NCBI GenBank assembly: GCA_964106645.2
Contig: OZ067038.1
Source: Podarcis pityusensis
Lineage: Eukaryota
DNA length: 64,000 nucleotides
Reading direction: 5' to 3' (one strand)
Position 1 is the first letter of the stretch. Every line of letters begins with the position of its first letter. Shown in pieces: positions 979 to 63,140 of the stretch. The translations under genes and the position numbers were made by a program. The notes beneath the pieces are model-generated. The model was not told the DNA's origin. It made no database searches and saw nothing but the letters and a program-made list of their open reading frames with translations.

Positions 979-1116
979 CATAGAATTGTATCGCTGGAAG
1001 GGACCACGAGGGTCATCTAGTACAACTCCTTCAATACAAGAATCTTTTGCCAAACATGGGGCTTGAACCCATAACCCTGAGATTAAGAGTCTGTTGCTCT
1101 ACTGACGGAGCTATCC
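979..1116 (-). mobile_element. tRNA-Lys-derived SINE with CR1-like 3' tail
   Basis: Minus strand GGATAGCTC..GTAGAGCA..AGACTCTTAATCTCAGGGTTATGGGTTCAAGCCCCA (tRNA-Lys CTT-like head with A/B boxes), then ...GATGACCCTCGTGGTCCCTTCCA...ATTCTATG. Confidence 0.7.
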
Positions 1117-2521: not shown

Positions 2522-5500
2522 ATTCTGGCATAGACCATCAGTTCCTTCTCAAACAATTTGAGCATCTGAACCACGACAACCCTCACACTTTTGAAGCTAA
2601 AGATTTAGACATGCTAATCAAAGCTGTAAGTGTTGAGCAAATGTTTTCCAGATGCTTGCTTGCTGCTACTGCTGTATTTTTCTTTAGTGGAATCTACTTT
2701 TTCTCCCTCCCCTGCCTCCATTTTGAATAACTTTCATAGTTACCTCAAGAGTCATAGTCTGAGAATCCCATTTGGCTCCGTAATGTAATATTGTGCCACA
2801 GGAGACATTTATGTGCATTTGAAAACAGTCTGCTCATTTTTCTCATAGTGCCTCATGCGACTTGCATCCCCAAGCCAACATAAGCAATCTTTGAAGGCTT
2901 TTACAGAGCCTTTAAATTGAGCGCTCTTTTGACCTTTGCCAGCTAATACTGGCAAATTTTCTTCTCTGATTCCTTTAGCAATTTTATGTAAGTGTATTTG
3001 GATATGTACAAAAGATTTTAACTAGTTTTGCGTTGATTAATCACCTGTCTTTTAACTAGTTAACTGCTTTAGGTTTAGACTGATTTGCATTTTGCCAAAA
3101 CCTAAAGATAGGTTCTTTTGAAGTAGCAAAAAATAAATGAAACTTACAAATAAATAAACAAAAGCTGCAACACCATCTTCAAAAAGGGCATTTTTCATTC
3201 TCTCTTTTTTCCACATTAAACTTGATAGAATCAAAATAGTCTCAAAATATAAGCAGGTGTTTCCCAACGTGATCAAAATTGGTCCCCATAGATCAAAAGC
3301 AGGGATGGAGAACCTGTGATGCTCCAGATGTTATTGGATTGCAGCTCCAATGAGTAGCAGTTGGAGAGACCACCAGGTCCCCATCGCTGAGCTAATGAAT
3401 CAGCCAATTAAAGCTGCTTGCTTTGAAATTGAAAAGTATGTTTAGATTTGCAATCCATCCTCTCCTGAAGGCTTGGGGAGGGTAACAGTATTGCAGACAC
3501 AAAAACACCAAATAGACCCTTTTGCTTAACTAAATAATTGGGAAGGACAACTGTCAGAGGAGGGAAAGCCTTACAGATACAGTGGTACCTCGGGTTACGA
3601 ACTTAATTTGTTCCGGAGGTCCCTTCTTAACCTGAAACCATTATTAATCTGAGGTGCACTTTCGCTAATGCTAGCAACAACCCTTTAAAAATAACTAGTA
3701 CCACATTATTATTAAGAAGTTGCAGATGGCAAGGCTGAGACTTCAGTATAGTGAATTTTTAGCTCCCCCTAGTGAGTTCATAGCTGAGTGAGATTTCCAC
3801 CGGGAGACTTTGTGACTCATTGTTAGCACACTTTCCTTAAGCAAATAGAGAATTAAGGAAATGGGACTGAGTTTGCTCTTGAAGAATGACTGTGAGAACC
3901 ACTGTAGAAAAATGGACAGAAGCATAATCAAAATGGCACTACTGGCATAGTCAGCTGCATTTTCAGGTTATGCTAAACCATAGTTTACTTGTACAACATT
4001 AACAAGTAGGAATGAGCCTAAGCAAGCCTTGGGCTTACCAGCTCCCTCCTCCTGTTGTTGATTGGTTGGGATGAGAATAATGGACCAATAGCGATCCCTC
4101 CAATGTTAATGACTTGCAAGATGGGTGGGTTAAGATGATGGACAGTTACAGGAGCCACTGGTGGGGATGGTTCTGCTGTGGTGGAGGCCCCAGCTATGCC
4201 CAGATGGACAATAAGCCACAGTAAGATCTGAGAGCATTCTGGGATTGAATCTTTGAGAGGTCCAACTTTTTGATTCCTCAGCTTTATCAGTCTGGAGCTG
4301 GTATGGTGAAATTAAATGCATATATATAAATACCTTTCACCTTGCCCAGCCTTCTTCCAACTTGGTCCCCAGCAGATGTTCTGAACTACAACTCCCAACA
4401 CACCCGACACTTGGCCATGCTGGCTGGGGTTGATGGCAATTGTATATTGAATTGCTTTGTACTGTACACTTAAGGTAATTCTGATACAGCAGAGGCATTC
4501 AGTAAAGGTATGCTTCTCATTAAGTGACACATTTCACAGTTCTTAAGCAGTTTACCTCTGAGTGTGTGTTGTTTTTCAAGCAGTGCAAAAATTCATTCAA
4601 ATAAAGGGTTTTAACCTCTGGTCAGGGGCGAACGAAGGCTAACCAACACCCAGGGCGGGGCAAACGGCTGGCTGCGCACGCGTTGCGCCGCTACGAACGA
4701 TGCATGTGTGGCATTGCTACATACGACGCATGTGTGCTGTCGCTATGTAGGACGCATGTGCGGCACTGCTACGTACAGCACATACGTGCGACACCAAGCA
4801 TGCGTTGTACATAGCGATTTGCCGCCGGCGCCGCCCGAGCGCCATACGGACGTTGGTGGGATCCTCTGCTCGCAGTGGCGGTGGAGGGATCTTCTGCTTG
4901 CGGCTGTAGTGGCGACGGAGGGATCCCACCACCATCCGTATGGCGCTCGAGTGGCACCGGTGGCAAACCACTATGTACAGCGCATGTGCGGCATCGCTAC
5001 AAACCGCGCATGCGTGTGACACCGTGCATGCGTTGTATGTAGCGGTTTGCCGCCAGTGCCGCTCAGGCGCTGTACAGACAGTGGCGGGATCCTCCACTCG
5101 CGGCTGCAGCCACAAACGGAGGATCCTTCACATGTGGCTGCGGCGGTGCAACAGCTGCTGGCGCTGCCACGCCCGGGGGGCGGCAGGGTGAGCACCCCAC
5201 GGGGTGCCTTCTTGTCACCCCCGAGACATGGCACCCAGGGTGCACCACCACCCTGTCCCCCCTTGCGACGCCACTGGCTCCGGTGTGCTATAGTACTCAC
5301 CCAGTCAGGATCAGCTTGTCCAGCCCTGAGCACTGGATGGCCAGGAAGCCACCAGAGACTCCCAGCTTTGCAGGAGCCCACTCAAATGTTAATGGAAAAA
5401 GACAAAACTAATAGTTTCCTCATTGATGTAGTGGTGGCAGTTCATTTCAAAAAAGAATGCGTTGGGCAGCTTATCTCCCTGTCCTCATTTAAAGGCAGTG

Positions 5501-8500
5501 CCTGGTCAATGGTACTGGTGGTCAGGGTGTGATAACTTTGAAGTTTTATTTCTTTTTGGCTATATCTTTACATTTCGGGTTGGGGGCACACTAGTTGACT
5601 GTTGTATAAGGGGCCCGCAAAATCATGGAATCAGCTTTGCGACTCTGCCTCTCTTATAATTTTACCATTGCTTAACTCCCTGGATTTTCTGTGTTGCATA
5701 TCTTATTGTTTGAGTTGATGTGGTTTTTCAGTTGTTAGTGACAGATATTAAACCACTTCATATACGCTTTCCTTTCATAAGTAAATTGGAAGGAAAGAGT
5801 GTGGTATCGTATTTTTCGCTCTATAAGACGCACCAGACCACAAGACGCACCTAGTTTTTGGAACAGGAAAACAAGAAAAAAAATATTCTGAATCTCAGAA
5901 GCCAGAACAGCAAGAGGGAGCGCTGCGCAGTGAAAGCAGCAATCCCTCTTGCTGTTCTGGCTTCTGGGATAGCTGCGCAGCCTTCCTTTGGTCCATAAGA
6001 TGCACACACATTTCCCCTTACTTTTTAGGAGGGAAAAAGTGAGTCTTATAGAGCAAAAAATACAGTATATCAGCTGTTCAGCATGACCTCAGACCCACTG
6101 CTGGGACACACACAAAGCTTGGATAAAAGGAGTATTTTGTGCTTCATATTGCAGTGGTCAAAAAACATAGTATTCTTAATTGATTTTTAATTTGTAGGCC
6201 ACAAGTGACTTAGAAAACTATGACAAGACTCGTCATGAGGAGTTTAAGAAATATGAGATGATGAAAGAACATGAAAGAAGAGAATATTTAAAAACACTGG
6301 ATGAAGAAAAGAGACGACAAGAAGAAGCTAAGTATGAAGAACTGAAGAAAAAGCACAGTAATCACCCCAAAGTTAACCATCCTGTAAGGACATGGTTTGT
6401 GTCTACCATATAGTGAAGGTGTATTCAGGCGTTATGAATTAAAAGGAGAATAAATAAAAGTACAGTGGTGCCCCGCAAGACGAATGCCTCGCAAGACGGA
6501 AAACCCGCTAGACGAAAGGGTTTTCCGTTTTTGAGTTGCTTCACAGGACGAATTTCCCTATGGGCTTGCTTCGCAAGACGAAAATGTCTTGCGAGTCTTG
6601 AGATTTTTTTTTCGCTTTCCCCCCCCCCTTTATCTAAGCCGCTAAGCCTTTAATAGCCTTTTAGCAGCTAATCCGCTAAGCCTTTAAGCCTTTAATAGCC
6701 GCTAAACCGCTAATAGCGCTAATCCGTTAAGCCGCTAATAGGGTTGCTTCGCAAGACGAAAAAACCGCTAGACGAAGACACTCGCGGAACGGATTAATTT
6801 CGTCTTGCGAGGCACCACTGTAGTGGGATATGCTTTATAGGTGCACTTAAATTTGGTTTGGTTATTGAACTGGCAGGACTTTACTGAACTGAAATATCAT
6901 TTTATATGCTTCCTTTCCAGCCATTTCTTATTTGATTTACATTTATGAGAAGGGACTGAGATCTGTGCTTCCTTTGAAAACTTTTCTAATACATGTTTGA
7001 GCTGCAGCTTTCATTACAACTTCTTCTGTGGGGAATAGAACCTGACCAAGTTCTACCTCCCCTTATGTTATGCCCATCTGTTAATAAGAGTGGCATTGTA
7101 GAATGATCCAAATGGTTCTTGACCATGTGTAACATATTGTTTCATTTTTGTTATCAGCTCTGCTGACAATTTAGGAATTCCTACTGAAGATGTTGACATT
7201 AATAGATGATAGATGTGTGCTTTTCAGTGTGTGTGTGGGGGGGGAATAACTAGATTTTGAAGCTTTTTTTAGAAAGGTAATATGGATTTATTTGGCACAA
7301 TGTGGTTGCAAGAACTGTCTATCTAATCATTTGCATTATTGCTTTTTCTGATCAACTTACAGGGAAGTAAAGACCAATTGAAAGAGGTGTGGGAGGAGGC
7401 AGATGGACTGGACCCCAATGATTTCGATCCAAAGACTTTTTTCAAGTTGCATGGTAAGGAGCATAATTTTTTCCTGTAAAAAATTAAGCAACTTGAGTGA
7501 TACTCTTGGGATTGCCTTCTCTGGAGCAATACCTTCATCATGTGACAACAAAGAATATTAAGTAAATTAACATCGGTAGTAGGGTAAAATCCCATTATGC
7601 AGATCAGGGCTGAGGTGATACAATTTATCAGACAGTTGAGTTCTAATTCAGCATTTTCACATTGGAGTGTCCCTTTTGTACTGGAGTTTATCTACATGTG
7701 TATAGGTCCTTGTAACACAACAATTTCTATAACTGGTGGGCTTGTTGCGCTTATTTTCATTTTGGCACTATTTACCTCAACAGTCTGGAGTCCATACTGA
7801 GGAAGAAAATAATAATGTTTTGAAGAAGGACTACAACTTAGATTCATTTTCAGCTTGCCTTGTATTTTTAAAACTCATGCCAATTACCCTTTCAAGGACT
7901 TGAAAACTAGTCTGGTAATTATACATGACCTTCTGGACAGATTACTCAGTCTTTTGAAGGTTCTTTAAAGCTGCAATAAGCAGAATTTCCAAAACTGCTA
8001 AAGAATCAATATTCAGATCTGGGCAAAGGGGCCAGAGCTTATAAGGCTATGCTCTGCAAAATAAAACCCTCTTTTGCTGTTATTGTTAGGAAGTAAGTCT
8101 GGGCAAGGTTGTCCCAGCTGCCCTCCAGCCACTGGGACTAAAGAACCTGTAAAATATCAGGAAATGGGACTGAGAGTTAACCCCTCCTCATTTCTGTTCT
8201 CTATTTATCCCTGCTATTACACAATGGCTGTGTGTGGCAAAGTGACTTTATCAACATTATGGTGTTGTGACAAATGTGCAGGGCTGGACAGATCTGAAGC
8301 AGATACATATAAAGAATAGTATCCGAGACAGATAGTTAATTCCTTTCTAAGTTAAATAGCACCAACAATTTCTAAACAGCAGTTAGGCACTGAAATCTTA
8401 CAAAGGTCATGGATGTTCACACCCTTGTCTAACAGGCCCTTGCTTCAAAAGTTAATTATTAAAAGTCAAGCTGCCATGATTTAATGCAGATAAACATGAT

Positions 8501-17095: not shown

Positions 17096-17994
17096 TATAA
17101 CAAAGTTGTACATATCTCTGTTATTTCCAGTGCAATATTTGTATGCAGAATGTTGTTTCACCCTTACTTTGTATACATGAGGTATAAATTAAATTGAATT
17201 CATAGTCAGTTGCTTTGGGTCCTCTATGACCATCTTCTTCCAGTGATTGTTGTGGCAGCATTGTTATGTTTGGCAGAATTAAAAACAATAACACTGTAGA
17301 TCATAAACAAGGATGTTTAACATTTATTATTATATTTATTACATGTATTGGTTGGTTACTACAGAAAATGTATTGAAGCAACCAACAATTGGAGAAAAAC
17401 ACAGAGTTTATTCGTTGTCAATGTGAGACAATAAACCAGAAGCCTATATGGGGGGAAGAGAGACTTGGAGCATGAATTGAATACTCAGGACTGTAGGGGG
17501 CTATGGGTTGAGATTTTACTTAAACTCAAGATTAGGCTTAAATTGAGCTGTCAACCATTTGTGAGATTTGCTGAGGTGCTGTGCCTGTTTGGTTTTCTGT
17601 TTACCTCCTGTATTTTAACCCGGCTTACTCGTGAGCACTCCTCAGCTGCCTGAGAAATGAGGATTTCTTTTGACGCCACGGATACGAGCTTCGAAAGTTT
17701 ATTGCCTAGTACTCAGCTACGTACAGGAGCTGTTTCTTGGTCGGAGTTTTTTTATTTATTTATCCCAGTTTAACTACTCAAGCCGTTGAAGTTGACTTTT
17801 TGACCATGCGAAGCTTCAGTGCGATTTTAAGTTTCGCGGCTGCCCCTCCTGTCCACTATCTGCGTCAGGTCCAAATACAACCAAAGCTCGCAATCTCAGA
17901 AGGGAAAGCGAAACCTTTCACAGGACAAAGACGATTGTGGGAACCTGGCGAGTTCTTCGCGTGGAAGGAAAACCGCGCCTCACCAGCGAGACCC

Positions 17995-18085
17995 ATGGAC
18001 TGGGGAGGTGGGTTGGCGGCCCGCAGGTGCCTCCTGCACGGCTTCTCGGTGTTCCTCTGTGGCGTCGTCGTCCTCCAGCCGGCAG
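17995..18085 (+). CDS. NCR3LG1: NCR3LG1-like exon 1, signal peptide [30 protein letters not shown]
   Basis: ATG (cccATGG) in a CpG island, hydrophobic leader, donor GCAG|gtaaac in phase 1 matching the IgV exon. Confidence 0.8.
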
Positions 18086-21000
18086 GTAAACGGAGCGGGC
18101 GAGGGGCGTCGCTGCTGCCCCTGCTGCTTCCTCTAAAGGCCGCTCGGCAGCCGCAGGGCGACTCGCGCCGTGAGTTCGGCTCCTGCTTGGGGGAGAGAGC
18201 GCGGAGGTCGCTCTCGCCCCGGGGGAAACGAGCGGAAACTCCTGGATGTAGGGGAGAGCTAGTAGGGGAGCTGAGTGGGGCAGCACAGGCCACCCGCTCC
18301 CCCTCTCTTGGAGAAGCGAGTTTTGTGACAAGGGGCGAGGCGGACGCTAACTAACGAGAGTAACAGATAGGTAGCTGTGTTGGTCTGACATAATCAAAAT
18401 AAAAAAAAAAAATCCTTCCAGTAGCACCTTTAAGACCAACTAAGTTAGTTCTTGGTATGAGCTTTCGTGTGCAAGCACACTTCTTCAGATACCTTCAGGT
18501 ATCTGAAGAAGTGTGCTTGCACACGAAAGCTCATACCAAGAACTAACTTAGTTGGTCTTAAAGGTGCTACTGGAAGGATTTTTTTTTTATATAACGAGAG
18601 TAAGGCGGACTAAGGGGGACACTTGTTTGGAGCAGAGGAGGAGGAAGCGGGCGCTTTGAAATTGCTCCTCCGTGGAAAGCCCAGCTCCTCCTTGCGCCTC
18701 TTCCTCGCGGAAATGGTGCCCACTAGGCTCGACATGCAGCTGTGCTTTTGAGACTAGGGAGTTTTCTCTACATATTTCTGGGGCACGGATTGGAGCCATA
18801 ACGCGTGTGGAAGGAGAGAGAAACCCTTAACGGAATCCACACTGGACACCCGGCGTCTTCAGCTTGCATTGGGGAAGCGGGAGAAACCACCAGCTGGTTT
18901 CAACCGGAGTTTCCCCCTCGGTGTGCTAATTTCTAGCGCTTGAGGAGAAATCCCTGAGAACGGAGTGTTAAATCATTGAATCATAGAGTTGGAAGAGACC
19001 ACAAGGGCCATCGAGTCCAACCCCCTGCCAAGCAGGAAACACCATCAGAGCACTCCTGACATATGGTTGTCAAGCCTCTGCTTAAAGACCTCCAAAGAAG
19101 GAGACTCCACCACACTCCTTGGCAGCAAATTCCACTGTCGAACAGCTCTTACTGTCAGGAAGTTCTTCCTAATGTTTAGGTGGAATCTTCTTTCTTGTAG
19201 TTTGGATCCATTGCTCCGTGTCCGCTTCTCTGGAGCAGCAGAAAACAACCTTTCTCCCTCCTCTATGTGACATCCTTTTATATATTTGAACATGGCTATC
19301 ATATCACCCCTTAACCTCCTCTTCTCCAGGCTAAACATGCCCAGCTCCCTTAGCCGTTCCTCATAAGGCATCGTTTCCAGGCCTTTGACCATTTTGGTTG
19401 CCCTCCTCTGGACATGTTCCAGTTTGTGGTTTCCCCCCTTTTCCATTTTTTGTACACATCCTTTTTTAATCTTAACTCAGTTAAAAGTTCTTTAGATAGC
19501 CACCCTGGCTTCTTTAGGCACCTTCCATGTTTCCGTCTCATTGGTATTGCCTGAAGAAGTTGTGCTTTTACTATCTCCCTCTTAACAAACTCCCAGCCAT
19601 CATGAACTCCCTTTCCTTTTAGTATTACTGTCTATGGCATCCGCCAACCAGCTGCGTTAGTCTGGATCCGCAGGGGGCACGTTATTATTATTATTATTAT
19701 TATTAACTACTTTTTTAAAAAAAATAAATTTTATTAGTATTTTCCACACAACAACAACAATATGAAAGATAACAAAAAATAACAGTACACAACACACAAA
19801 AATCAACATTCGAAAACTAAATAAAGCAACAACAACAAAAACAAACAAACAAAAACAAATCCATATCTTACAAGTTAATATTATAAACACTAAAACAACA
19901 ACAAGTCATTGACTTCCACCATTCCCACAGCACCTCCTTTATCTCTCATTGTGTCTTCCTGTTTTTTTTATCATCTCTATCCTAACATCTAGATATAAAT
20001 CCTTCTTTCATATCCTTTCACTTCACCTTATTATTATTAACTAAATTTCTATATTGTACTGCCCTTCATCCGAGGATCACAGAGCGGCTTACAACATAAA
20101 AATGCAAAAATACATAACATAGTAACAAACTAAAGCAATAACCCCCTCACAGGTCATATAGATGGTTTAAATAGTCAAAGGCATGGGAGAAGAGGAATGT
20201 TTTTGCCTAGCACATGGATGGAGCTAAGGAGTGGGTAAAACAATAGAAATACTTAACTGAGCAATCGTGTTGGTTCTGCCCCCTAACAAAAGTCCTGCTC
20301 CCCAACACAAATCCTGGCTATGCCCATAGCCTGGCACCTAAAGATATGTCACAAAGGCACCCGGCAAGCCTTCCTGGGGAGAGCATTCCACAAGTGGGGA
20401 ACCACCACAGAAACGGCCTGCTGCCAACCTCCAGACTTCTCACAGAGAGGCACACAAAGAAGGGCCACAAATGACAATCATAGGGTTTGGGTTGGTTCAT
20501 ATGGGGATAGGCAGTCCTTGAGGTATTTCAGTCCTGAGCCATTTAAGGCTTTATAGGTCAAAACCAGCACTTTGAATTGGGCCCAGAAACTAATTGGCAG
20601 CCAGTGCAGTCAGGCCAGGATCAGTATAATATGCTCAAACTGTCTTGCCCTGGTGAGCAGCACCTGGGGTTTCTGAACCATCCTCAGAGGCACTCCCACT
20701 TATAACATGTTGCAGTCATCTAACCTAGAGGTTACTAGAGCATAGGCAACAGAAGTTAGGCTTTACCTGTCCAGACAGGGGGCGCAGGTGGGCCAGCTGT
20801 AGGAGCTGATGGAGGTCACTCTGTGCCACTGGGGCCACCTGAGCCTCAGGTGACAGCAGTGAATCCAGAAGCACCTCCCTTCAGAGGGAATGTAACCCCA
20901 TCAGGAGTTTTGGCAATTTGTGTGAAAATGAACAAGCCTTCATTCCTGGCTAAAATTTGGCCCTTTGGCATGCTGTTGACTTTCCAGAAGCCCTAACTCA

Positions 21001-23769: not shown

Positions 23770-26700
23770 TACCTGTAAAATTTGTTCTGTATCCTTCAGT
23801 GTCAAAATGCTATGAAGGCAGCTTAACTACTTAAACAATACAATGATAAATATCGAGCAACAAAAACAACAAAGCAGAGGAAGAAAAAAATACCTTCATA
23901 TCAATGGCGGGGGAAAATAAACCAGCTGGTATTTTGAAGGACCTGGGAACATAAAATGCCCCTCCAGGTCCGTCATTTACCTTTCTGCTTTTTCCATCCA
24001 GTTGTGCAGAGTCGTTTGTAACTCTAGTTTTGCCCAATTTTGGTATTCTCCTGGACTCCTTTCTTCAGCTCTTTGCCTCCACCATTATTTCCCCCCAAGT
24101 TCCTTCTTGTTCATTTTTATTACAACCAAGGCTCTTGACCAGCCTTCTTAGTAGGCTTCCCCCCTTCCCACCCATAGCACACAGCTCCTCTTGACCCACA
24201 AAACACCTTCTTCAGGACTTCTCTTCTGTGCCTCTTGCCCCAGCCTTCTCCTTCTGCTTAAACAACCCTCACCCCAGGTTTTTAATTTAGACCATGTCCT
24301 TCTGAGAAATCAGGAGTATGAACTATGACTTTCACTTCACTTTCAACCAGCTTTTGTCTGAAAAACTGTATAAAAATGCAGTAAAAACAGAAAAAATGAC
24401 ACTTTTTATTATCTCCATGCAGCTCAACCTTCAGTAAAGCTGTCTCCCAGGACAGTTGAACTAGAAGACGGCAAGGAGAAGACCCTGTCATGCACAGTGA
24501 ATAAATTCTATCCTCTTTTGATTGAGGTTCATTGGGAGAAAAAATCTGAACGCGGCAATAATGAAGTTGTACCTGCAGATGATATTTGCACAGGGGTACC
24601 TGTGAAAAATGGAGATGGCACTTTCAATGTAACCAGTAAACTGGGGCTACAACCATCTTTACAGGATAATGGAAATGTCTATAGTTGTGTTGTGGGACAC
24701 AAATCATTTTCCATACGGCAGGCCTTCAATGCCACTTTGATAGTAACAGGTATTCCTTCTGTTGACCTTTTCTCCCTGTGTGTGTGTATGTGTATAATAG
24801 TGGGTCACATCCAACTGGTGTACTTCCATGAGTGTAGGGGCTTTTGATCCAGAAGGGGAGAGGATATTTGCCCACACACCCTGGAGCCTTCAGCACCTTC
24901 CACTAATTCTGCCCAATGTTCTGAAATGTAGCTTTCTCCTTTCTCCAAAGATTCATATTGTACTTACAAATGCATTAGTCTTTGGGACTTCCATGCTAGG
25001 GCATCACAAGGAAAGGGATAAAATATATTGTAATGCCTTTATACAAATCTATGGGAATACTGTGCACAGTTCTAGTCGCTGCATCTCAAAAAGATTATTG
25101 TGGAGCTGGAAAAGGTGCACAAAAAGGGCAACCAAAAATGATATTAGGGATGGAACAACTCCTTAGTGAGAAAAGGTTATGGCACTTGGGGCTTTTTAGT
25201 TTTTTTTTTAAAAAAGGCAAATATGAGGAAGGGACATGTTAGAATTGTATAAAATTATGTGTGATATAATTATCTGGGATGCGGGTGGTGCTGTGGGTTA
25301 AACCACAGAGCCTAGGACTTGCTGATTAGAAGGTCGGCGGTTTGAATCCCCGCAACGGGGTGAGCTCCCATTGCTTGGTCCCTGCTCCTGCCAACCTAGC
25401 AGTTCCAAAACACTTCAAACGTGCAAGTAGATAAATAGGTACCGCTCTGGTGGGAAGGTAAATGGTGTTTCCGAGCACTGCTCTGGTTCGCCAGAAGCGG
25501 CTTAGTCATGTTGGTCACATGACCCAGAAGCTGTATGCCGGCTCTCTTGGCCAATAAAGTGAGATGAGTGCCGCAACCCCAGAGTCGGTCACAACTGGAC
25601 CTAATGGTCAGGGGTCCCTTTACCTTTACCTTTATGTGTGATATGGATGGAAGTTAGTTCTCCATTAACACAATCTGGGATCATCCAGTCAAGTTGACTG
25701 GTGAGAGGTTCAGGGCAGACAAAAAGAAGTACTTTTTCATGCAACATATGCTTAACTTACAGAATTCACTGCCATGTGGTGGTCTGTTGATGGCCATTAG
25801 CTTAGATGGGTTTACAGTGTGATTGGACACAATTGTGGACTGTAAGCCCACCAATGGCTACCTCCAAAATCAGAGGTAGCATGCCTCTGAATATAACTTT
25901 CTGGCAAACAACAATATGAGAGGTCTTTATGTCCACTTTGGAAACCTTATAGTCATGCTAGACCAGATTAGTCTTTGGGCTTCTCCAGCTTTTCTTATGT
26001 GCAGTTGGAATAAATGAGGCTAAAATAACTTTGCCATGATTGAGTAGCTGAATATGAAATATTACTTCTCATCAAAAGGTTGCAACAAGGCTGAAACATT
26101 TTGCTATTTTGTGTGATAAGTAACAAGAACAATTTCTCTCTCTTTACAGAACCACCACCAAATTTTACCTGGTTGGCTGTGATACTTGTTTTATTATTAC
26201 TTGGTGTGATTCCTGTAATTCTGTACATAATGTACTTTAAGAAAAGTAAGTAATGGGAAACATTTAATTAATTGATTATTTAATTTTTTCAATTAAGAGA
26301 ATTCTATACTATTCATCAAATGTGGTTAAGGGTGGTTTACAAAAATAGATTAATATGAAACATAATACATGCACATATTCATTATTATTAAAGTAAAATT
26401 AGTATTTTTGTGAAATCTTAATCTTTGGTAAACTTAGGTCTGAAATGACAGTATTCAAAAAATCCTAGGCACCAGTACACCAGGCACCAAAAAATCTCCT
26501 TGCCTGTGGTTAAGAATTTTGACTAAGTTTTCTTTTAAGTGGCTAAGATTTCTTTGCTGAATCAGTTGGGGAAGGGCCATAACTCAGTGATAGAACATCT
26601 GTTTTGCATGCAAGAGGTCCTAACTGGTTAGTTCTAGCTTCAGCACTATCTTGGAGATGGATGGCTGTCAGTGACAGAGTGGTGGCCCTATGCCCCAGAT

Positions 26701-29700
26701 TTATCTGCTCACTAGAAAAGACTCATGGAGTCTATACAACTGAAGCTACTATTTGTTTTTTGTTTTTTAAATAATTTTTATTAAGATTTCAATAAAAGTT
26801 AAACAACAAAAAAAAGTTAAAATACAAAAACACGCAATACATAATCCAAAAAGAAAAAGAAAACACAGAAAACAAAATACAAAAAAAACCCTAAAAACAA
26901 ACAAACAGAACAATTAAAAACAGTATCACTTTTCCATTTCCGTTTTTGAATTTACTTATTTTCTGGACTTCCTCATACCTCCCTCTTTTGTATTCCAGTC
27001 CAAATTGTTTGTCCAGCAATTTCTTTTCCACTTTTTTAATCCCAATCTTTAATCGTAATATAATATAACATTAAATTTTTACCTCTTAAGTACCAAATTT
27101 CCATTTCCTTAAACATCTTTAATCCTAATCTTTAATCTTAGTCTATCAATAACTTTAACCTGTACAGCTGGAAACCACTTATTTTCGATCCAACATCACT
27201 CTAACATTCCTTAATTTTGCAATGTTTCTGAAGATAATCTTTGAATTTCTTCCAATCTTCCTCCACCAATTCTTCTTCCTGGTCACGGATTCTGCCAGTC
27301 ATTTCCGCCAGTTCCATATAGTCCATCAGTTTCATCTGCCATTCCTCCAGCATGGGAAGTTCTTGTGTCTTCCAATACTTTGCGATGAGTATTCTTGCTG
27401 CTGTTGTTGCATACTTAAAGAAAGTTCTATCCTTTTTTAACACCATTTGGCCGACTATGCCCAGGAGAAAGGCCTCTGGTTTCTTAGGGAAGGTATATTT
27501 AAATACCTTTTTTAATTCATTATATATCATTTCCCAGAAAGCCTTAATCTTTGGGCACGTCCACCAAAGGTGAAAAAATGTACCTTCAGTCTGAAGCTAC
27601 TATTTGACATTGCAAGTACTCAACTAGCAACCAATAACATCCACATGAAGTATGTCCTGGAATAGACCCTGAAGGTCATTTAGTCCAAGCCCCTGTCACA
27701 GATAAAGCACTCTTTCTCAGCTCTTTTGCTTTATTCTACATAATACAGAAATAGCACACTGCAAGATTCTTAATTCAGGACTACAAAGCTAACCAAAATA
27801 CTTGGGTGGGATATGTACAAAAGGAATAAGAAGGAATGCTTAATCTGTGGCTACCCTGCACTGAACAGGGAGTTGGACTGAATGACCTTTAAGGTGTTAA
27901 GGAATATAGCTAGTGTGTTAATTTCATTAGTGAGGGAAAAGCTGACTCACTGATTCATTTCCAAAATGCACCTGGCTCAATTTGACTTCTTTATCAATTT
28001 ACTGGGCAGATTTGGTTGCCCAGTCTTATTCCAGGACACGTCCTCTTTTTCAGGGGTAAAATTTCTGTCCAGGTAGATTTTTAAAATTTGCCCAAATGTC
28101 TCTGGCTATACTTTCTGGATGAGACATAGACTTGCTTTCCTTTTCTCTTCTCCTGTCCCCCTCAGCAATATATCACAGCTTCTATATCCTACCTGTGGTA
28201 GAGATATTTAAAACAAGTCGTCATAGCGTCCTCTTTGTTGCTCTTCAAAATATGGCTAACTTAGTAAGCATGCTACTATATGTATAAAAGGGCTCGGATT
28301 AGAGAATTGGTTGTGGGTCAGTGGCTGTTATCAGGAAGGGATGGATCATTGTGAAACACTTTGAGGAGAGCTCATCTGAAAAGAAGGCTGGCATATGGAT
28401 TTTGCTCAGCAAGGATTTTGAATTACACAAACTCCTCTGGGACCAAAGAGAGAAAAGCCTTTGTGCAACCTGTATATAGTGTGTAAATATAGAGTGTGTA
28501 TTTTGTGTGTGTCAGGTAAAACAACTGCTTAAAACAAGAACTGTTTTGGGTTGGTGAGCTAAGCAACTTTACTGAAGCTTCCAGGGCGCACACAGAGAGA
28601 GCAAGATTTATAGATTGAAGATAGCACCCCACATCACCATAAGGTTCTTTTAAACTCTTATTATTCTGTGGGAAAGGTGCACATAGCCAGTACACTTCCA
28701 TCCGTTCTGTGTTAATGGGTACTCATAACATATCATGGTGTCTTCTGCTTAAGGTGGAACTAATCACAACATAGGACATCTACTGCATATCCATCCATAT
28801 TGTCTAAATAACACCTCTGTTGAGGGTGTGACCTTTAACAGCTGCAAAACCCAGCATTTTGGAGCTTAAGAGAACATGGAACTTAATACAATACATTAAG
28901 CTGTTAGGTTTTTTGTTCACTGAACTGTCACTATTCAATGTCTTATTGCCACAGAGGAATTATGGAAGGAATTATCCTCCAAATCAGAATGATTCTTTGT
29001 GCAAATTCATATGCTGCAAACATCTTATTAAAATCCCTGCTCCTACCTTCTGGCTTTCTATCATATCATCCCCAACCCTTTAAAGCTTTAAACAGTCTTT
29101 GCTGAACTGGCTTCTTAAGTAAGGCTGTTGCTATACTCAACTGAACCTAACCTCAAAAATAAACTCTTCCTAATCTTACTGAGCCAACGCTTCATCCAGG
29201 ACTGTCTTTTTCTTCCAGTTATGCTTTACCTGATCTGTACTGCAAGCACTCTGGATAGGGACTGTGCCACTTGATCTTTGATACAGCATCTTGCATACAT
29301 TGCTATTCACCATGTAGCAGTCACTAGCATTTGCGATAGACTGAATGTGATCATTACAAAAAAGAAAAATAATGCTTTGTTGTAAACTGCAGTAAGAATG
29401 TTCCTCTTACAGATGACTTGTTATAATAGTATCCGTTGAAACACTGCTACAAGTTTCTACACCTGAAATTCTTTGTTTTGTTCTTTATAGTTCAACCAGG
29501 GATATTTTCAGCAACTGCAAATAAGGAATTGAAACATTTGGAAGAAGCACTGGTGGTGTTCTGGCTGCAAGGCTTTCGTCCAAAGCCTTTAGAAATAGTT
29601 TTTTTCTTAAAACTCCAAAGCAGGAATGAAAAACTGAAACTGTGCTCTTGGAATACTATGACAGGCAGCAATATTGAACACGGAGAAGATATGCCTCTTA

Positions 29701-30645
29701 TCACTGGAAAAGAAGAAGAAAGTTCTGATCTTGACAAGACGTTGAAGACCATGTTTACTTTTGAGCCAGCTTTGCAAGTAAAACAAAGGCGCACTTTTGA
29801 CGTTTCCTGCAAAGTCAACATAGTTCCAGATGTAAAGCATCTGGAGGAGTTTGAACTTATACTTGAAGTTAGACATGAGGCCTTTTCAGATCGTTTGTCT
29901 ACTGAAACAATATCATTTAAAGTCATAGGTAAGTAGGAAAGATGGGCTGAAATGATCACTTAGAATAATACTACATATTTCACTGGCTATTACAGTGGTA
30001 CCTCGGGTTAAGTACTTAATTTGTTCTGGAGGTCCATTCTTAACCTGAAACTGTTCTTAACCTGAAGCACCACTTTAGCTAATGGGGCCTCCTGCTGCCG
30101 CTGCGCCGCCAGAGCACAATTTCTGTTCTCATCCTGAAGCAAAGTTCTTAACCTGAAGCACTATTTCTGGGTTAGCGGAGTCTGTAACCTGAAGCGTATG
30201 TAACCTGAAGCGTATGTAACCTGAGGTACCACTGTATAAGAATTCTGTCAACAGATGAAAGGTGAGAGAGCTGCATGAATGCAGTGGGATACTTTCTGCT
30301 GCCAGTGATGATACACAAAGGGAAACAATGCAGGATTGTAGCTAAACTCTTTGATCAGTCTACAAAAAGTGAATGATAAAATGGGAAAGCAGCACAGGTG
30401 GCTTGTGTGGAGATTATTTTTCTTAATCTCGTTCAGTTTGACTAGTTTCTTATAACTTGTGAGCCCGTACGAAGGGTGAAGTGATGACCTTTAAAGCATT
30501 TCATGGTATAAGGCCTGCACGGGATTGTGTACTCCCTGCCTTCTTCAGATCAGAAATTCATGTGGACAAAAGAAAGTCCATACTTATTATCTTCTCCAGT
30601 TGCATTCTACTTGCTAATAATATCACTTTTTTGGTATGTATACAT

Positions 30646-30676
<31 letters not shown>

Positions 30677-33600
30677 CAGAATGTACTCCCAAAGTCTCCA
30701 AATTTGAATGTGAGCCTCCTGTACCAGAGTGTGGGAAACTCATCACATTATCTTGTTTAGTAGAAGATTTCTGCCCACGGGAGTGTGACGTTTGTTGGCT
30801 AAGAGGCAATAATGAGCCTTTGGATGCTATAAGTAACACAGAGGAGCCACAACTGGACCCAGGATCAAATCTGTATTGCAAGAAAAGCAGAGTATCCTTT
30901 ATACCTCAACCAGAAGACCATGCAGTAGACTTTATTGTTCAAATCAACCATTGTAAAAAAGTTATAAGACATAGTTACCCGCTCATGTTAAAAGGTGAGT
31001 ACTCGGCAAGTTCTTGTGCAATGAACCACTACTTGTGCTTTCCGTCTAAATAGTTTATCTAAAACTGGAAATACATAATGGAGTTGTTTCCTGTATCTGT
31101 ATTTGTTGTGGGTCTTTGATAACTTGTATTGAAAGAGATCACTTGTATCTCTTTGTCATTAGGTGATGCTATCGTGGGTTTGTCACATGGAAAACATGAC
31201 TCAGAGAGTCCTTGCACAGAAGTGTCAAGTCCTTCATAAAATTAGTATAGAAGTTTTTCTGGGTGAAATCAGCAAAGCAAGTTCATAGCTGATATGTGCA
31301 TCTTCGTAGGAAAATTATAGTGTCGGCTAGTGGCAAATTGCAAACATGACAAGCATTATAGTGCAGCCAATTTAAAACATGAATCAATGAGAAATCGAAG
31401 CTCTCATCTGTTTCAGTCCAGAAGGTCAAAGATGGCACACTTTGTATTCCAACCAGAATAAAACACAGCCATGTTTAATCATATGCATTTAATAACAAAT
31501 AATATATATGTGGGTGTCATATATGTTAGAATATGTTACAGACTGCCAAGGCTCTCCTGCCATTATATGCATACTCTTATCATTTCTCCATATACCGTAT
31601 TGTGTGGATTTGAACTAATTAAATCTGCAAAGCTTTTAATTTGTAGTTTTGTGAGATTGCTCTGATTTTACAAAAGATCTGTCTCCCAGAGTTCATTGGG
31701 AGAAGCCATAACATCTAAACTAGGCAAACTTGGTAGTTTTGACAAGACTGTGGTGTTAATTGCTCATTCTATCCTTTAATTTCAACCAGGGTTGTAGTGA
31801 GAGTGAAAGGATAAGCAACTGTAATTTTTCCAAACCTAACTCTTTTTGAGAGAGACTGTGTGTATATATCCATGTGTGTATCCACTGAGGATAGGAGTTC
31901 ATGCATCATATGAAGTAGCCTGTAGTCCATGAAAGTTTATGCCATGATATATGTGTTATAAAGTGACACTAGGCTAGCTTTTGCTGTAACATACTAATGT
32001 GACACCCCATCTGCCATTTGTCACTTCTAATTTACTGTTTTGCAATGCCAGATGTACTAGCATTCTTTGAATTTAAACTAATATTTTCAATTGTTTGTTT
32101 TCTCTGCATCTGCATTTTTTAGGTTACCCCAAAGTTACAGATATTACGTGTGAACCAAATTATCCTAAATATGGAACTACATTGTCTCTAACCTGTAAAG
32201 TCACAGATTTCTTTCTTAGCAACATAAATATTCAATGGCTTGATGGGGGTATTGAAATAAGTAAAGGTGTGGTCACAGAGGGGCCAGTCAAAGACTCAAA
32301 TGGCTGCTTGAAGTTGTCTTCTGAGCTCCAGCTGATACCAACTGCTTTGGATCATAATAAGTTCATTATTTTCAGTGTGACATATGGCGACCTGAAAAAG
32401 CCCATTATTAGAGATGTGTATCTAAAGCTCCCAGGTACGTACTGAGAGTCCTTTGGGTTCTTTCAACTTTTGGCAAATGGCAATTTGAGCTTGTTTATTT
32501 AACAAAATTTGTAAACCACTTAATTTTAAACATGTTGTTAAGTGATTGTAAAAATGTCTAAGTGGTTTGCATAAAATAAAATGTATATTAAATTGAGGAT
32601 CAATGTAGTATTATGATATAAAGCAGTTCCCTTTGCAACAAGGGAGGTTTGACATGTTTGTGTACTCTGATAGGTGTACCATATAGCCATGTCTCTACTA
32701 GCAGTCATGTGTCCCTAATATCTGCCAGTTTTGTTTGTTTTTTGAAAGTCCAAACTTCCTTGCAGACTTGCATTTAGTAGTTCTGAAGATTCCCTGGTAA
32801 AAAAATCAGGTAAATCTAATAAAAACTAAAAAACACACACCATATGTTCACACATAGGCACTGATGTTACTAGTTCACCCCAAGTTTTTGAAAATCAAAA
32901 ACCATATTCTCAGATCTATATTCATTGAAGATGAATATCCTTGCAACCCTGCTGATCTGAAGTGTGATTTAAACAATGACACATTTAAATCCTTCATAAA
33001 ATTCCTGTACTTTTTAGAGGAAAGTTATAGAATAGATTCACATTGGGGAAGGGCAGTAGAATATCCTAGGTTTAGCCCCTAGCATTTCCAGGCAGGGCTG
33101 GAAATATCCCCTGCTTGAAACTGTGCAGAGCTGCTGGCAGACACTGTAAACAACACTGAACTAGATGGATTAATGGACTGACTTGGTATAAGGCATATTT
33201 TTATGTTCCTGTTGTCTTGTATTCTCACTTCAAGTACATCCTTTCCTTTCCTCCCCATTTAGTTCACCGCCCTGAGATGTCTGAAATAAAGGAAACAGCG
33301 CAAAACAGTGAGAGCATCTCTTTGGAAACTGTCATATCAAATTTTGCACCTTGCAACATAAAAGTGACATGGTATGAAGAATGGGAAAAAATATCTGAAG
33401 ACAATCCCAGGAACATTCAGATTGGAGAAAACAAGTTAGGTTATTTTGTAAGCAAATTACAGTTTAGTCCAAAAGGAAAAGACTCCAAAAAGACAATCAG
33501 ATGTGAAGTTTTTCACCAAGCGACACAGGATTTTAAAGAAACAAGCTTTGTGTGGGAAAGGAAAGGTAAGAACTTTTTTTTTTATGTTTTCAGCGCAGAA

Positions 33601-35497
33601 TGTACAGAATTTATGTAAGGGATTCAGACATGTCCCTCCAAAAAACACTGCTAATGGGGGAAAAGGTGATTCCTCTTCTCAATTAAGCACTTCCGTTACT
33701 TAGGACTCAGCTACAATAGTAAAAAAACAAGAGAGTTTTAAATGCATTATAAACATGGAACACCAGGTGCACTGTAGAGCACAATACTTTTCTATGTGTT
33801 TTACATAGAGTTTTTTCTTTTGTTATAACAATTTAATTTATAATTTAATTATAGCGTTTCCCCCCCTGTGTGTAGATACACCCTCGGTCATGGCTGAAAG
33901 ATGGCTTTGTAGTCTTTTGGGTAGCTTATGATTTTCTCATATTTAATAATATTCTTCAGAAGACAAGTGTATCTGGTTGTTATGTCAACATAATGCTCTT
34001 ACAACACACCTGGTTTTAGAAATTTTGTCTTGAATTCATCAGAGAACTAGATTTTGAATTTTTTCCATGAATATTGCTCTGACTGTATCTCTCCCCACTA
34101 CAACCCCCCAAATGCTACCCTTGGAAGGCAGTTGGCTAATTGCAGTTGAAAGCGTGTTGATTCAGTTGAGTAGCATTTTTGCTGTAAGTATTTCTGTTAC
34201 GTGACATGATGCCTGCCCAAGGCCTAATATGTTATTTCTTCTTTTAAACAAGATGAGCCTGATAGCCTTGACAGCATGTCTACAGTGAGTGAAAACCACG
34301 GTGAGTATTGCACCTCACGTGTAGGTAAAATGCAGGTACATGACACATTGACTCAGTGGTTTCATATCCTGTTTTTGCAGTCCCAGTTAAAATCAGAAAA
34401 CTGCTTAGATGTTTCTTGGAGGAGGCAGTGGGAGAAGAGAGCACTTGGACAATCTTTACTCTGCTTATAAACCATTATTTATTAAAGTGAGATCATTACA
34501 TCTCAACCAGACCATTAAGTTACTCTAAACGTGCACATTATTTTCATAAGGGATGATCTGAAAGATCAGCTTAGTCCATTCTGTGAAACTTGTACGCAGG
34601 GATCTGCAAGCTTTCGTTTGGCATAAAAGCCTGCCACTATTTGTGGCCACAGTGACCACTCCTCTCAGCCCTCTGAAATGTACAAGGAAACAGGAAAGGG
34701 TGCAAAGGAGTTCCTCATGTCATGCTTCTATTTACGCCATTCCTATTCTGCTTAATGTATGACAATATATTTATATACCACTGGATAGTTTTTAAAAATC
34801 ATAAAAATAATAAAACAATAACAGGTTTGACAAAACAACTATGTGAAACATTAGTTTTAAAACAAGTAGTTTATGAATTTATATGCCACCATTAATATCT
34901 TAATAACTGAGTCTCTAACAACCGATAAAAGATACTGAAGACATATGAAAGACATTCATATATGCTTAACTGAACACATGAAAGTCCATCCAGATGAAAC
35001 TACAGATTGGGGCTTGAAGATAAAACTGTATCAATGTGAGCAGAAAGTTCAAATTATCTGACTTGAGGAAAATATGCAAATGATTGGAAACTGAACATCA
35101 CAACCAGGGATGCTTAATGTTAGCGAGATGCCTCTTCCAGGTATGTACTTCAAGAGCAGTTTCCTATTCAATTTCCTATTCCCTCTCTCTAGATTCTAAG
35201 TTACCAACTCAGCCTATGAAGATAGAATGTGTCACCAGCAACCCAAAGGCAGGCGAGGTGACTCTTCGCTGTTTTGTACCTGGAATAAGAGCAGAGGAAG
35301 CCATTGTTTCCTGGTTTAACGGAGTATATCCAGTTGATGATAAAATACAGAATGAAAACTGTGGCGATGGATCTGGTTTTATTTCGTATGTGAACATTAC
35401 AACCGAAAAAGATAAGAAAAAATATGAAATCGAATGTGCAGTTTATGTAGATGCAAATGATGAAACCTTGCGTGAAACCTTTGATTTAGAACTTTGA
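17995..35497 (+). CDS. NCR3LG1: NCR3LG1/B7-H6-like type I membrane protein with five extra post-transmembrane Ig-like domains, predicted 861 aa; exons 17995-18085, 22245-22595, 24423-24749, 26150-26245, 29491-29928, 30680-30994, 32123-32434, 33263-33565, 34253-34300, 35193-35497
   Basis: Syntenic position between NUCB2 and KCNJ11. IgV (SLKVTM...IPC...VEWYWK...[26 protein letters not shown]) and IgC1 (CTVNKFYP...[14 protein letters not shown]...YSCVVGH) resemble B7-H6. All introns are GT-AG phase 1, and the summed CDS of 2586 nt is one open frame. The B7-H6 identity is strong; joining of the post-TM exons is inferred. Confidence 0.85.
18364..18591. mobile_element. Penelope-like element remnant in inverted (palindromic) arrangement with 12-bp TSD
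   Basis: TSD TAACGAGAGTAA at 18352-18363 and 18592-18603; perfect inverted repeat 18403-18588; terminal sequence of the type found in reptile Penelope elements (family assignment from memory). Confidence 0.75.
18498..18537 (+). ncRNA. Minimal type I hammerhead ribozyme motif (mirror copy on - strand at 18454-18493)
   Basis: GGUAU-CUGAAGA-A-GUGUGC(UU)GCACAC-GAAA-GC-UC-AUACC: stem I GGUAU/AUACC, CUGANGA and GAAA core, stem II, tiny palindromic stem III (AGCU). Confidence 0.65.
18971..19640 (-). mobile_element. CR1 LINE 3' end, internally deleted
   Basis: ORF 19045-19446 [16 protein letters not shown]...[11 protein letters not shown]...[10 protein letters not shown] is the CR1 ORF2 C-terminus; ATGATTC-type tail; joined to an upstream ORF2 segment ([10 protein letters not shown]...KKWKRG). 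Confidence 0.9.
19711..20027 (-). mobile_element. L1-clade 3' UTR fragment with poly(A)
   Basis: T-run and TTTATT at the left end, A-rich body like the L1 at 26756-27590, flanking direct repeat ttattattattaacta. Confidence 0.55.
20050..20900 (-). mobile_element. Old L2-like LINE fragments
   Basis: Motifs such as tttaaggctttataggtcaaaaccagcactttgaattgggcccagaaactaattggcagccagtgcag, with a related copy near 12150-12260. Confidence 0.5.
21607..21963 (+). mobile_element. Sauria SINE
   Basis: tRNA-like head (GGTTCGAATCCC-type B box), body GTGCAAGTAGATAAATAGGTACC, (ACCTTT) tail. Confidence 0.9.
22245..22595 (+). CDS. NCR3LG1: NCR3LG1-like exon 2, IgV domain
   Basis: Canonical B-strand Cys, C-strand Trp and EEGIYSC; T-rich tract with AG acceptor; donor G|gtaag. 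Confidence 0.93.
22965..23120 (-). mobile_element. CR1 3' fragment
   Basis: Similar to 18980-19150 (gagttggaa...ctctgctt...tccaaagaaggagag...aacagctctta). Confidence 0.65.
23740..23770. repeat. (TATG)n microsatellite
   Basis: Direct reading. Confidence 0.95.
24423..24749 (+). CDS. NCR3LG1: NCR3LG1-like exon 3, IgC1 domain
   Basis: [20 protein letters not shown] and [10 protein letters not shown]1-set motifs; both Cys present; cag| acceptor and |gtattc donor. Confidence 0.93.
25000..25870 (+). mobile_element. Decayed CR1 ORF2 3' fragment interrupted by a Sauria SINE
   Basis: gagctggaaaaggtgcacaaaaagggcaaccaaaatgatatt (ELEKV..RATKMI-like), continuing after the SINE as aggttcagggcagacaaaaagaagtacttt. 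Confidence 0.6.
25276..25633 (+). mobile_element. Sauria SINE, full length
   Basis: GGGATGCGGGTGG start, (ACCTTT)n tail, TSD-like ttatgtgtgatat at 25255-25267 and 25632-25644. Confidence 0.92.
26150..26245 (+). CDS. NCR3LG1: NCR3LG1-like exon 4, stalk + transmembrane helix ([32 protein letters not shown])
   Basis: Strong acceptor tttctctctctttacag|, donor A|gtaagt, 96 nt phase 1-1, about 23 hydrophobic residues followed by KK; too short to appear in the ORF track. Confidence 0.88.
26756..27590 (-). mobile_element. 5'-truncated L1-clade LINE (ORF2 C-terminus + 3' UTR + poly(A))
   Basis: [17 protein letters not shown] zinc-knuckle region leading into ORF 27201-27530; perfect 16-bp TSD ctgaagctactatttg at 26740-26755 and 27591-27606. 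Confidence 0.9.
29491..29928 (+). CDS. NCR3LG1: Post-TM exon 5, degenerate Ig C1-like domain (146 codons)
   Basis: ttctttatag| acceptor, G|gtaagt donor; FWLQGFRP and LEVRHEAF echo C1 motifs CxxxGFYP and CxVxH but lack the Cys. Confidence 0.8.
29993..30234. mobile_element. Tigger-like MITE, family A
   Basis: TA-CAGTGGTACCTCGGGTTA...TAACCTGAGGTACCACTG-TA. Confidence 0.9.
30645..30676. repeat. (TTTA)8 microsatellite forming a splice-acceptor tract
   Basis: Direct reading; immediately followed by cag and the exon. Confidence 0.95.
30680..30994 (+). CDS. NCR3LG1: Post-TM exon 6, Cys-rich Ig C1-like domain (105 codons)
   Basis: tttacag| acceptor, G|gtgagt donor; [12 protein letters not shown]...VCWL...FIVQINH. 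Confidence 0.85.
32123..32434 (+). CDS. NCR3LG1: Post-TM exon 7, Ig C1-like domain (104 codons)
   Basis: ttttttag| acceptor, G|gtacgt donor; [11 protein letters not shown]...IQWL...LSSELQLIP. Confidence 0.85.
33263..33565 (+). CDS. NCR3LG1: Post-TM exon 8, Ig C1-like domain (101 codons)
   Basis: ccccatttag| acceptor, G|gtaag donor; [14 protein letters not shown]...IRCEVFH. Confidence 0.85.
34253..34300 (+). CDS. NCR3LG1: Putative 48-nt linker exon 9 ([16 protein letters not shown])
   Basis: Pyrimidine tract + aacaag| acceptor, CACG|gtgagt donor, frame-preserving phase 1-1; no homology support. Confidence 0.5.
35193..35497 (+). CDS. NCR3LG1: Terminal exon 10, Ig-like domain with both Cys, stop TGA 35495-35497
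   Basis: ccctctctctag| acceptor; VTLRCFVP...VSWF...YEIECAV; ends ETFDLEL*. Confidence 0.8.
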
Positions 35498-35509
35498 GAA
35501 ATCATTGTA

Positions 35510-36394
35510 CAGTGGTGCCCCGCTAGACGAATGCCTCGCAAGACGAAAAACTCGCTAGACGAAAGGGTTTTGCGTTTTTTCAGCTGCTTCGCAAGACGAA
35601 TTTCCCTATGGGCTTGCTTCGCAAGACGAAAAACGAAAACGTCTTGCAAGTTTCTTTCCTTTTTCTTAACACCATTAATACAGTTGTTTGTATCGAAGTT
35701 GACTTCGAAGAGCAACTCATAGAACGCGGTGTGGTAGCCTTTTTTGAGGTTTTTGAAGACTTTGGTGATTTTTGAAGCTTTTCCAAAACTTCTTTTGCAC
35801 CCATTTGGTAAGTTAAACTTTTAAAACTTTTTTGGGGGGTTTTGGATTTTGGGTTGGGGTGTTTGGAATTCAAGGACTTGGTGTTGGGGAGGGGTTTGCA
35901 AGAATCTGGAAGCTTGTGTTTTTTTTCCTGCATTTTTATGATTTTCTGTGACCACTGGGCCACTCTGCTGTTTTTTTAAAAAAATTCTGGATTTGAATTT
36001 CTGTGTGGTGGGTGGCTGGGGGAACAGTTGAGGAAGGGGTTCTTCAGCAAGAAGCAAAGAGTGGAAGAGGAACCTTCTTCGAGTTGTCCCCCAGAGTCTT
36101 AGAAAATGTACTGTACACTTTGTTGATTTTTTAATGTTTTTCTGTCATGTTTAGAAACTTAATTTATTGTTCCTTCAGTTTTTGAAATGCTCTTTACAGT
36201 ATGTGTGACTTTAAAGAGCACTTAATAAACTCTTGTTGTACCAAATTTGGCTTTGTTTGGACTTTTTTTGACCATAGGAACGCATTAATTGAATTTCAGT
36301 GCATTCCTATGGGATTTCGTGCTTCGCAAGACGAAAAATTCGCTAGACGAAAAAACTCGCGGAAGAATTAATTTCGTCTTGCGAGGCACCACTG
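35510..36394. mobile_element. Tigger-like non-autonomous element, family B (long copy), 12 bp after the NCR3LG1-like stop codon
   Basis: Same TIRs as 6463-6820, with TA flanks. Confidence 0.88.
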
Positions 36395-44581: not shown

Positions 44582-44691
44582 CATAGAGTTGGGACTACGA
44601 AGCTCATCTAGTCCAATCCCCTGTAATGCAGGAATCTTTTCCCCAATGGGGGGCTCAAACCCACGACCCTGAGATTAAGTGTCTCATGCTC
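44582..44691 (-). mobile_element. Second copy of the tRNA-Lys-derived SINE (5'-truncated)
   Basis: Clear similarity to 979-1116 (accctgagattaag, gaatctttt, tcatctagt). Confidence 0.65.

Positions 44692-55440: not shown

Positions 55441-63140
<7,700 letters not shown>

Follow-up and report, generated by a model that had tools for sequence, protein, structure and literature searches.

How did a perfect palindrome with a ribozyme motif on each strand come to lie in the first intron of a B7-H6-like gene, and does it act on that gene? The locus forms part of a 64-kb stretch of DNA, the whole of which is referred to here as the window. Sequence comparison points to a stump-sized insertion of an endonuclease-bearing (EN+) Penelope-like retroelement (PLE), most likely a neutral passenger, a reading to which we give a probability of about 0.85. 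Two arms, 18403-18494 and 18497-18588, are exact reverse complements of 92 bp separated by the spacer TC, and all of the 20 top-ranking rows in a window-wide scan for exact palindromes belong to the 18403-18588 structure, which bears out the palindrome described in the initial annotation. The perfect 12-bp target-site duplication (TSD) reported there is equally exact: the plus-strand repeats 18352-18363 and 18592-18603 are identical, extend no further and enclose an insert of 228 bp. Exact 12-mer repeats spaced 200-280 bp apart occur only five times in the 64 kb, the other four falling inside two other repeated elements. The sequence to the right of the insert is again unique.

The symmetry of the insert is incomplete. 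Its left 39 bp (18364-18402), absent from the earlier description, have no mirror partner, and this unpaired segment is diagnostic. The arms are also unequal in homopolymer length (12 versus 10). Read on the minus strand, the order is hammerhead, linker, U-run and tail. The main arm (18403-18494, minus strand) would accordingly represent the 5' part of the element RNA, carrying hammerhead, linker and U-run, as judged from the palindrome scan, run contigs and folding; the AC-rich unpaired segment, also on the minus strand, would be the PLE tail and RNA 3' end, with a length of 36-39 bp that varies with where the A-run is divided. In the fold computation, the arm and the AC-rich part of the tail close an 8-bp stem. 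The inverted arm (18497-18591, plus strand) lacks the tail. The 2-nt spacer at 18495-18496 marks a head-to-head junction situated just 5' of stem I on both strands. The nicks implied by the TSD lie 12 nt apart, both after GTWA at this one site.

The coding part of exon 1 of the host gene (17995-18085, plus strand) begins with ATG, is signal-peptide-like, is followed by a GT donor and, once spliced, is in frame with a V-set exon at 22245, for which the best PDB match is NCR3LG1 (E 1.5e-12). A C1-set exon and a transmembrane-like exon lie downstream of the V-set exon. An RNA-like contig from a relative matches the window exactly as far as 18085 and then continues with 28 letters unlike it, as expected for a spliced exon. 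An inward-rectifier channel ORF at 50236-51759 is presumably KCNJ11, the neighbour of human NCR3LG1. With a signal exon, IgV, IgC1 and transmembrane segments, a best match to NCR3LG1 and a Kir6.2-type channel gene nearby, the B7-H6 (NCR3LG1)-like assignment made initially is upheld. The insert begins 267 bp into intron 1. The CpG-island setting is likewise confirmed: GC content and CpG observed/expected ratio (o/e) are 0.63 and 0.87 for 17800-18351, 0.55 and 0.80 for the island as a whole (17800-18900), and 0.37 and 0.25 for the AT-rich insert that splits it. Directly downstream of the island, 18960-19640 (minus strand) holds a LINE 3' fragment with no Pfam match, which we take to be CR1. Past the transmembrane exon (about 26150-26210), a separate plus-strand region at 29430-35494 contains exon-sized ORFs, with Pfam C1-set matches at 30463, 32077 and 33160 and look-alikes without a match at 29430 and 35084. 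If these share the transcript, Ig C1 domains follow the membrane anchor of the B7-H6-like protein; otherwise they constitute a separate gene.

The hammerhead motifs are minimal and of type I. In the plus-strand copy (18498-18537), which has the sense of the pre-mRNA, stem I pairs 18498-18502 with 18533-18537 (5 bp) and is followed by the core CUGAAGA at 18503-18509 and one extra A. Stem II pairs 18511-18515 with 18520-18524, rising to 6 bp if a C-G pair closes the UU loop, and is followed by GAAA, a palindromic AGCU and C17 at 18532. The minus-strand copy (18454-18493) is its mirror, with C17 at 18459 and cleavage predicted between 18459 and 18458. In the 64-kb window, a minimal-hammerhead descriptor that also checks the stems matches these two copies and nothing else. 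Stems, core and cleavage site are thus as first proposed, including the predicted cut after C18532. The Rfam hammerhead models, named in the initial annotation as a check, gave a different outcome: no hammerhead family appears, neither in the one match at gathering score nor in the 24 matches at E<=10. Rfam matches to miRNA families were set aside as generic hairpin matches below their own gathering scores.

The motifs resemble the metazoan PLE hammerheads described by Cervera and de la Pena (2014; PMC4209133) in the CUGANGA core, the extra base before G10.1-C11.1, a long stem II, GAAA, a loopless palindromic helix III and the NUH rule. The core is nearly identical to a painted-turtle motif in the supplement of that paper. 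Dual hammerheads on opposite strands of metazoan PLEs are placed there 100-700 bp apart; in contrast, the two motifs of the insert are directly adjacent and exact complements, and therefore each blocks the other in a read-through transcript. The remaining architecture also conforms to EN+ PLEs. Published accounts of such insertions report 5' truncation, frequently accompanied by an inverted copy abutting the 5' end and by a 30-40-bp tail confined to one of the ends (Craig et al. 2021; PMC8557442), and rotifer PLEs show head-to-head palindromic junctions, a 31-bp tail and TSDs of 8-10 bp (Arkhipova et al. 2013; PMC3846280). The insert shares with both accounts the inverted copy at its 5' side, the palindromic junction, the one-sided tail, here on the left, and a short TSD, which at 12 bp is longer than the rotifer examples given in PMC3846280. 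It differs from EN+ PLE insertions in having no ORF or full pLTR and only about 130 nt from hammerhead to tail. The proposed Penelope origin is thus supported by the hammerhead consensus, the tail, the inverted copy and the TSD. Within the 64-kb window, no ORF encoding a reverse transcriptase (RT) or GIY-YIG domain was found. PLEs have not been found in birds and mammals, according to a recent account (10.64898/2026.07.22.740005). The repeats of the window give the impression of a squamate reptile host.

Poseidon of the lizard Anolis carolinensis offers a biochemical comparison. Its purified PLE protein, predicted to be a dimer, is reported to cleave and extend both strands; reverse transcription starts at two internal sites bounding the tail, and the RNA that it uses is mainly unprocessed (Frangieh et al. 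2024; PMC11167929). In the features described there, the insert is similar, with two 3' end positions bounding the tail, an AC-rich stem-loop downstream of the hammerhead and a probable insertion from uncleaved RNA. It differs from the published Poseidon description in that its sense strand has no ATG at stem II and its target is a CpG island rather than AT-rich DNA.

The arm belongs to a large repeat family. Four of 24 listed public sequencing runs were compared with the left flank, tail and left arm. Runs X1 and X2 are labelled as the same species, in different samples and studies; X4 is from another species, and X15 is an RNA-like run of another species. X1 (share 0.99) is possibly the source sample and is therefore not independent. 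Summed contig depth of the arm is about 1.3e5 (X1), 9.3e4 (X2) and 2.8e4 (X4) times that of the unique flank, a ratio that is inflated by overlapping contigs and is not a copy number. Judged by this depth, the family is very abundant, probably numbering tens of thousands of copies or more. Relative to arm depth, the tail attains only 7.6% (X1), 8.1% (X2), 2.4% (X4) and 1.2% (fourth run), so that the 1-8% range in all four runs fits an optional tail. The ribozyme core has 0.85-0.88 of the linker depth in the DNA runs, without a sharp drop at the cut site; copies made from ribozyme-cut RNA are therefore not the rule. Among the best-supported loose ends listed, contigs end at 18397-18417 (18397, 18401, 18405 and 18417) and at 18490-18494 and pass from there into unlike sequence, with a consensus agreement of about 0.4 beyond 18490-18494. 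From these two clusters it follows that many copies are short, with one end just 5' of stem I and the other at the U-run. The mirror arm of the insert starts and ends at the same two places as the family copies, its outer end being equivalent to about 18399-18403.

At position 18459, which corresponds to C17 of the minus-strand motif, about 30% of the family depth in X1 and X2 gives U17 rather than C17, and both obey NUH. The family contigs have no listed variants over the ribozyme core (18460-18492). This was rejected as a sign of conservation, as even the CpG in that interval has no variant row, which indicates an edge effect. In three of the four runs, the consensus past 18492 (18492-18496) opens with the same few letters, at an agreement of only about 0.4, and on the sense strand of the element these resemble a 3' splice site immediately preceding stem I. 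In Drosophila virilis, an intron end is mapped to the 5' end of helix I (PMC4209133). At 18447, A>G accounts for 3.5% of the family depth in X15, compared with 0.03-0.14% in the three other runs; for a single site summed over copies, in a run with no matched DNA, this is at most a hint of editing. Viral contigs gave 0 matches to the arm family. Blastn, the descriptor and alignment to three other imperfect palindromes and a look-alike at 19649 revealed no further copy of the arm in the 64-kb window, all four of the alignments scoring within shuffle range. The three palindromic or tandem elements (4743-5101, 5892-5970 and 60341-60523) are older, have 70-84% arm identity and are unrelated to the PLE arm where compared.

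Could the palindrome have been inserted ready-made? A non-autonomous element of MITE-like or retrozyme-like kind, copied as a unit from a palindromic master, would account for arms that are identical even at the family-polymorphic sites 18431, 18432, 18447, 18451, 18453 and 18459, and perfect hairpins break de Bruijn contigs, such that palindromic copies escape counting in the run contigs. The same letters in both arms are, however, also expected when both derive from one source, and other features make a palindromic master quite improbable. The repeats are not terminal on the left, where the 39-bp tail intervenes. Family contigs reaching 18490-18494 continue into unlike sequence, and the six listed joints near the centre, whose orientation is not given, show five different sets of in-between letters, none of them that of the window. 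MITEs are defined by inverted repeats at both termini; with a left arm that begins 39 bp inside the insert, a MITE or other DNA transposon derivative was rejected. The insert is similar to non-LTR retrozymes in being short, non-coding and PLE-derived with a type I hammerhead (Li et al. 2026; 10.64898/2026.07.22.740005). Retrozymes as defined in that account are head-to-tail tandems with a same-strand hammerhead in each unit, whereas the insert has one motif per strand, in head-to-head arrangement with a TSD and no head-to-tail tandem, and a retrozyme identity was rejected on this basis. A fold-back chimera created during assembly on a real single arm is harder still to credit. Perfect palindromes are a known class of assembly artefact, and read support covers the left junction. 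PLE structures are also described as troublesome for assemblies (PMC8557442). Against an artefact, the 12-bp TSD closes the insert on both sides, unique sequence continues to the right, the arms differ in homopolymer length and tail, a second sample bears out the left junction, and head-to-head junctions are described as normal for PLEs (PMC3846280).

If the insert is a PLE stump, its mirror arm still has to be explained. The origin of inverted ends in PLEs has been called undefined (PMC8557442). Priming from both target strands, to which we give even odds, would proceed as follows. (i) The template would be an uncleaved element RNA with its 5' end just upstream of the hammerhead, as the copy ends suggest. 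(ii) The PLE protein would nick the two strands at points 12 nt apart, giving two 3' ends that would each prime one cDNA. (iii) Starting from the distal site, placed at 18364 (minus strand), the left cDNA would include the tail; starting from the proximal site, the right cDNA would lack it. (iv) Both cDNAs would run about 90-130 nt to the RNA 5' end and then be joined head to head. This route, which rests on one insertion and on summed contig ends, would account for the TSD, for a tail present on one side, for where the centre lies and for the point at which the mirror arm has its outer end. The alternative is fold-back self-priming, which explains identical arms equally well. Self-priming on an antisense template is the route favoured by Arkhipova et al. 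(2013; PMC3846280). Why a mirror arm made in this manner should stop at the usual end of the family is not obvious, and we regard fold-back as a tentative possibility. The two routes can be distinguished: two-strand priming, unlike fold-back, predicts that mirror arms terminate at the two known start sites and join where the RNA has its 5' end, and stumps of this kind provide the material to separate models of PLE inverted-end formation.

An extension of two-strand priming, unlikely in our estimate, gives the hammerhead a role. Such stumps would record a step of PLE transposition in which two element RNAs, paired via their palindromic hammerheads as the dimer that the ribozyme needs, occupy a dimeric PLE protein, which primes cDNA from each of the nicked strands, using a different start site for each. 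If true, the hammerhead would serve for pairing RNAs and not for cutting, its 5' edge would set where the head-to-head junction falls, and tens of thousands of stumps would make the model testable from sequence alone. Cofolding of two 40-mers gives a minimum of -32.3 kcal/mol compared with 2 x -10.1 kcal/mol. This minimum was rejected as evidence on an active dimer, given that pairing occurs via swapped stems I and II and not via helix III. A search of the open-access literature found no paper proposing either two-strand priming in PLEs or the hammerhead-paired dimer.

In the transcript of the host gene, the ribozyme is most likely silent. According to an equilibrium model, the whole insert folds as a single hairpin of about -175 kcal/mol, and imposing stems I and II of the ribozyme costs 62 kcal/mol relative to that hairpin, leaving a probability of about 1e-44 both for the whole insert and in a 550-nt context. 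The same model gives the right arm alone a probability of 0.69 of forming the ribozyme stems. The assay fragment proposed in the initial annotation, 18490-18545, includes part of the blocking arm, and its modelled probability is 0.08. Since the palindrome is head to head, the antisense arm is transcribed first on either strand; taken together with the 62 kcal/mol gap, this means that the ribozyme is probably blocked. The earlier idea that the hairpin competes with the ribozyme fold is not supported by these values. In the pre-mRNA, the antisense arm would emerge first and form the 92-bp hairpin, the plus-strand motif would be sequestered with its stems inaccessible, and the intron would be spliced as usual. 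Independently of this locus, metazoan minimal hammerheads are reported to show no cutting as monomers and poor cutting as dimers (PMC4209133; see also the review PMC6765202). For the anole PLE hammerhead, a need for the PLE protein is described, with no RNA reads ending at the cut site (PMC11167929).

The hairpin might still matter in other ways. A regulator of the B7-H6-like gene, whether as a hairpin/ribozyme switch, an ADAR or Dicer substrate, a cruciform or an intronic poly(A) signal, is suggested by a position within the CpG island, at a distance of 267 bp from the donor of exon 1, and by apparent homozygosity in two diverged samples, whose contigs do not break at the insertion point. AATAAA with an A-run is present on the sense strand at 18398-18412. 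The 92-bp hairpin would form in RNA, and a cruciform would cost about 12 kcal/mol before junction terms against some 18 turns relaxed. Formation of dsRNA and of a cruciform is physically plausible; editing or dicing of so long a hairpin in the intron may occur, and the DNA may extrude under negative supercoiling. A switch is a different matter, as a gap of 62 kcal/mol leaves none possible, and the reported behaviour of metazoan hammerheads and the dependence of the anole motif on PLE protein (PMC4209133; PMC11167929) argue in the same direction. The insert is, moreover, probably absent in a related species. Tens of thousands of copies should by chance place hundreds close to first exons, and in a family of this abundance proximity to exon 1 needs no special explanation. 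The regulatory reading is therefore weak, and a consequential role is highly improbable. As one of very many PLE remnants, the single locus carries little weight. It does allow a natural test of the cost, if any, of carrying a perfect 92-bp hairpin in an intron close to a promoter.

When did the insertion occur? The X1 contig is unbroken from 17700 to 18412. The X2 contig differs from the window by seven substitutions and two indels in 689 bp of flank and runs 23 bases into the tail. The left junction is thus seen in contigs of both runs, and both samples appear homozygous from the lack of a break at the insertion point, with the proviso that rare alleles may be lost from contigs. The X4 data include a 536-bp contig that agrees with the window over 54 letters from 18307, after which about 356 letters lie off the stretch; this is probably the empty site, which would mean that the related species does not carry the insert. 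Six flank changes are specific to the lineage of the window, and at that rate perfect arms and TSD survive with a probability of 0.16-0.20. The insert is probably younger than the split from the related species and older than the split of the two diverged haplotypes. The initial description of the insertion as recent consequently holds in part: the insert is probably missing in the related species, yet it is common to two samples of one species that differ at nine places in 689 bp, an age at which perfect arms have a probability of about 0.2. An insertion that samples of one species share but that a close relative probably lacks makes a clean marker.

Comparable arrangements were sought elsewhere. 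In the open-access literature, no relevant paper was found on a palindromic PLE family or on such stumps in reptiles. Searching metagenomes with a degenerate core pattern returned 11 stretches, for which ten loci are listed. None of the listed loci belongs to the arm family, the sole blastn similarity being 39 bp of core in L002, and five (L001, L003, L008, L009 and L010) were dismissed as apparent chance matches. The motifs of L006 and L007, which are related, resemble PLE hammerheads. L007, unrelated to the insert apart from the same core motif, contains an RT-like YIDD fragment, with no Pfam match and no meaningful PDB match, and a GIY-YIG/HTH_animal-like domain, of which the GIY-YIG match falls below the Pfam cut-off. 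Its segments 244-317 and 1344-1417 form a 74-bp inverted hammerhead end with 96% identity, starting 13 nt upstream of the core. By its sequence, L007 appears to be an independent example of the layout with inverted hammerhead ends.

Two further observations concern other repeats in the window. Sequence 6452-6822 and the combined segments 35499-35632 and 36320-36396 are two copies of one element, 91-92% alike and with inverted-repeat-like ends, which is probably a DNA transposon derivative. At 1056-1113 (minus strand), a tRNA-like Rfam match of 30.8 bits, just over the gathering score, has a 78% look-alike at 44591-44691 and is probably the head of a SINE.
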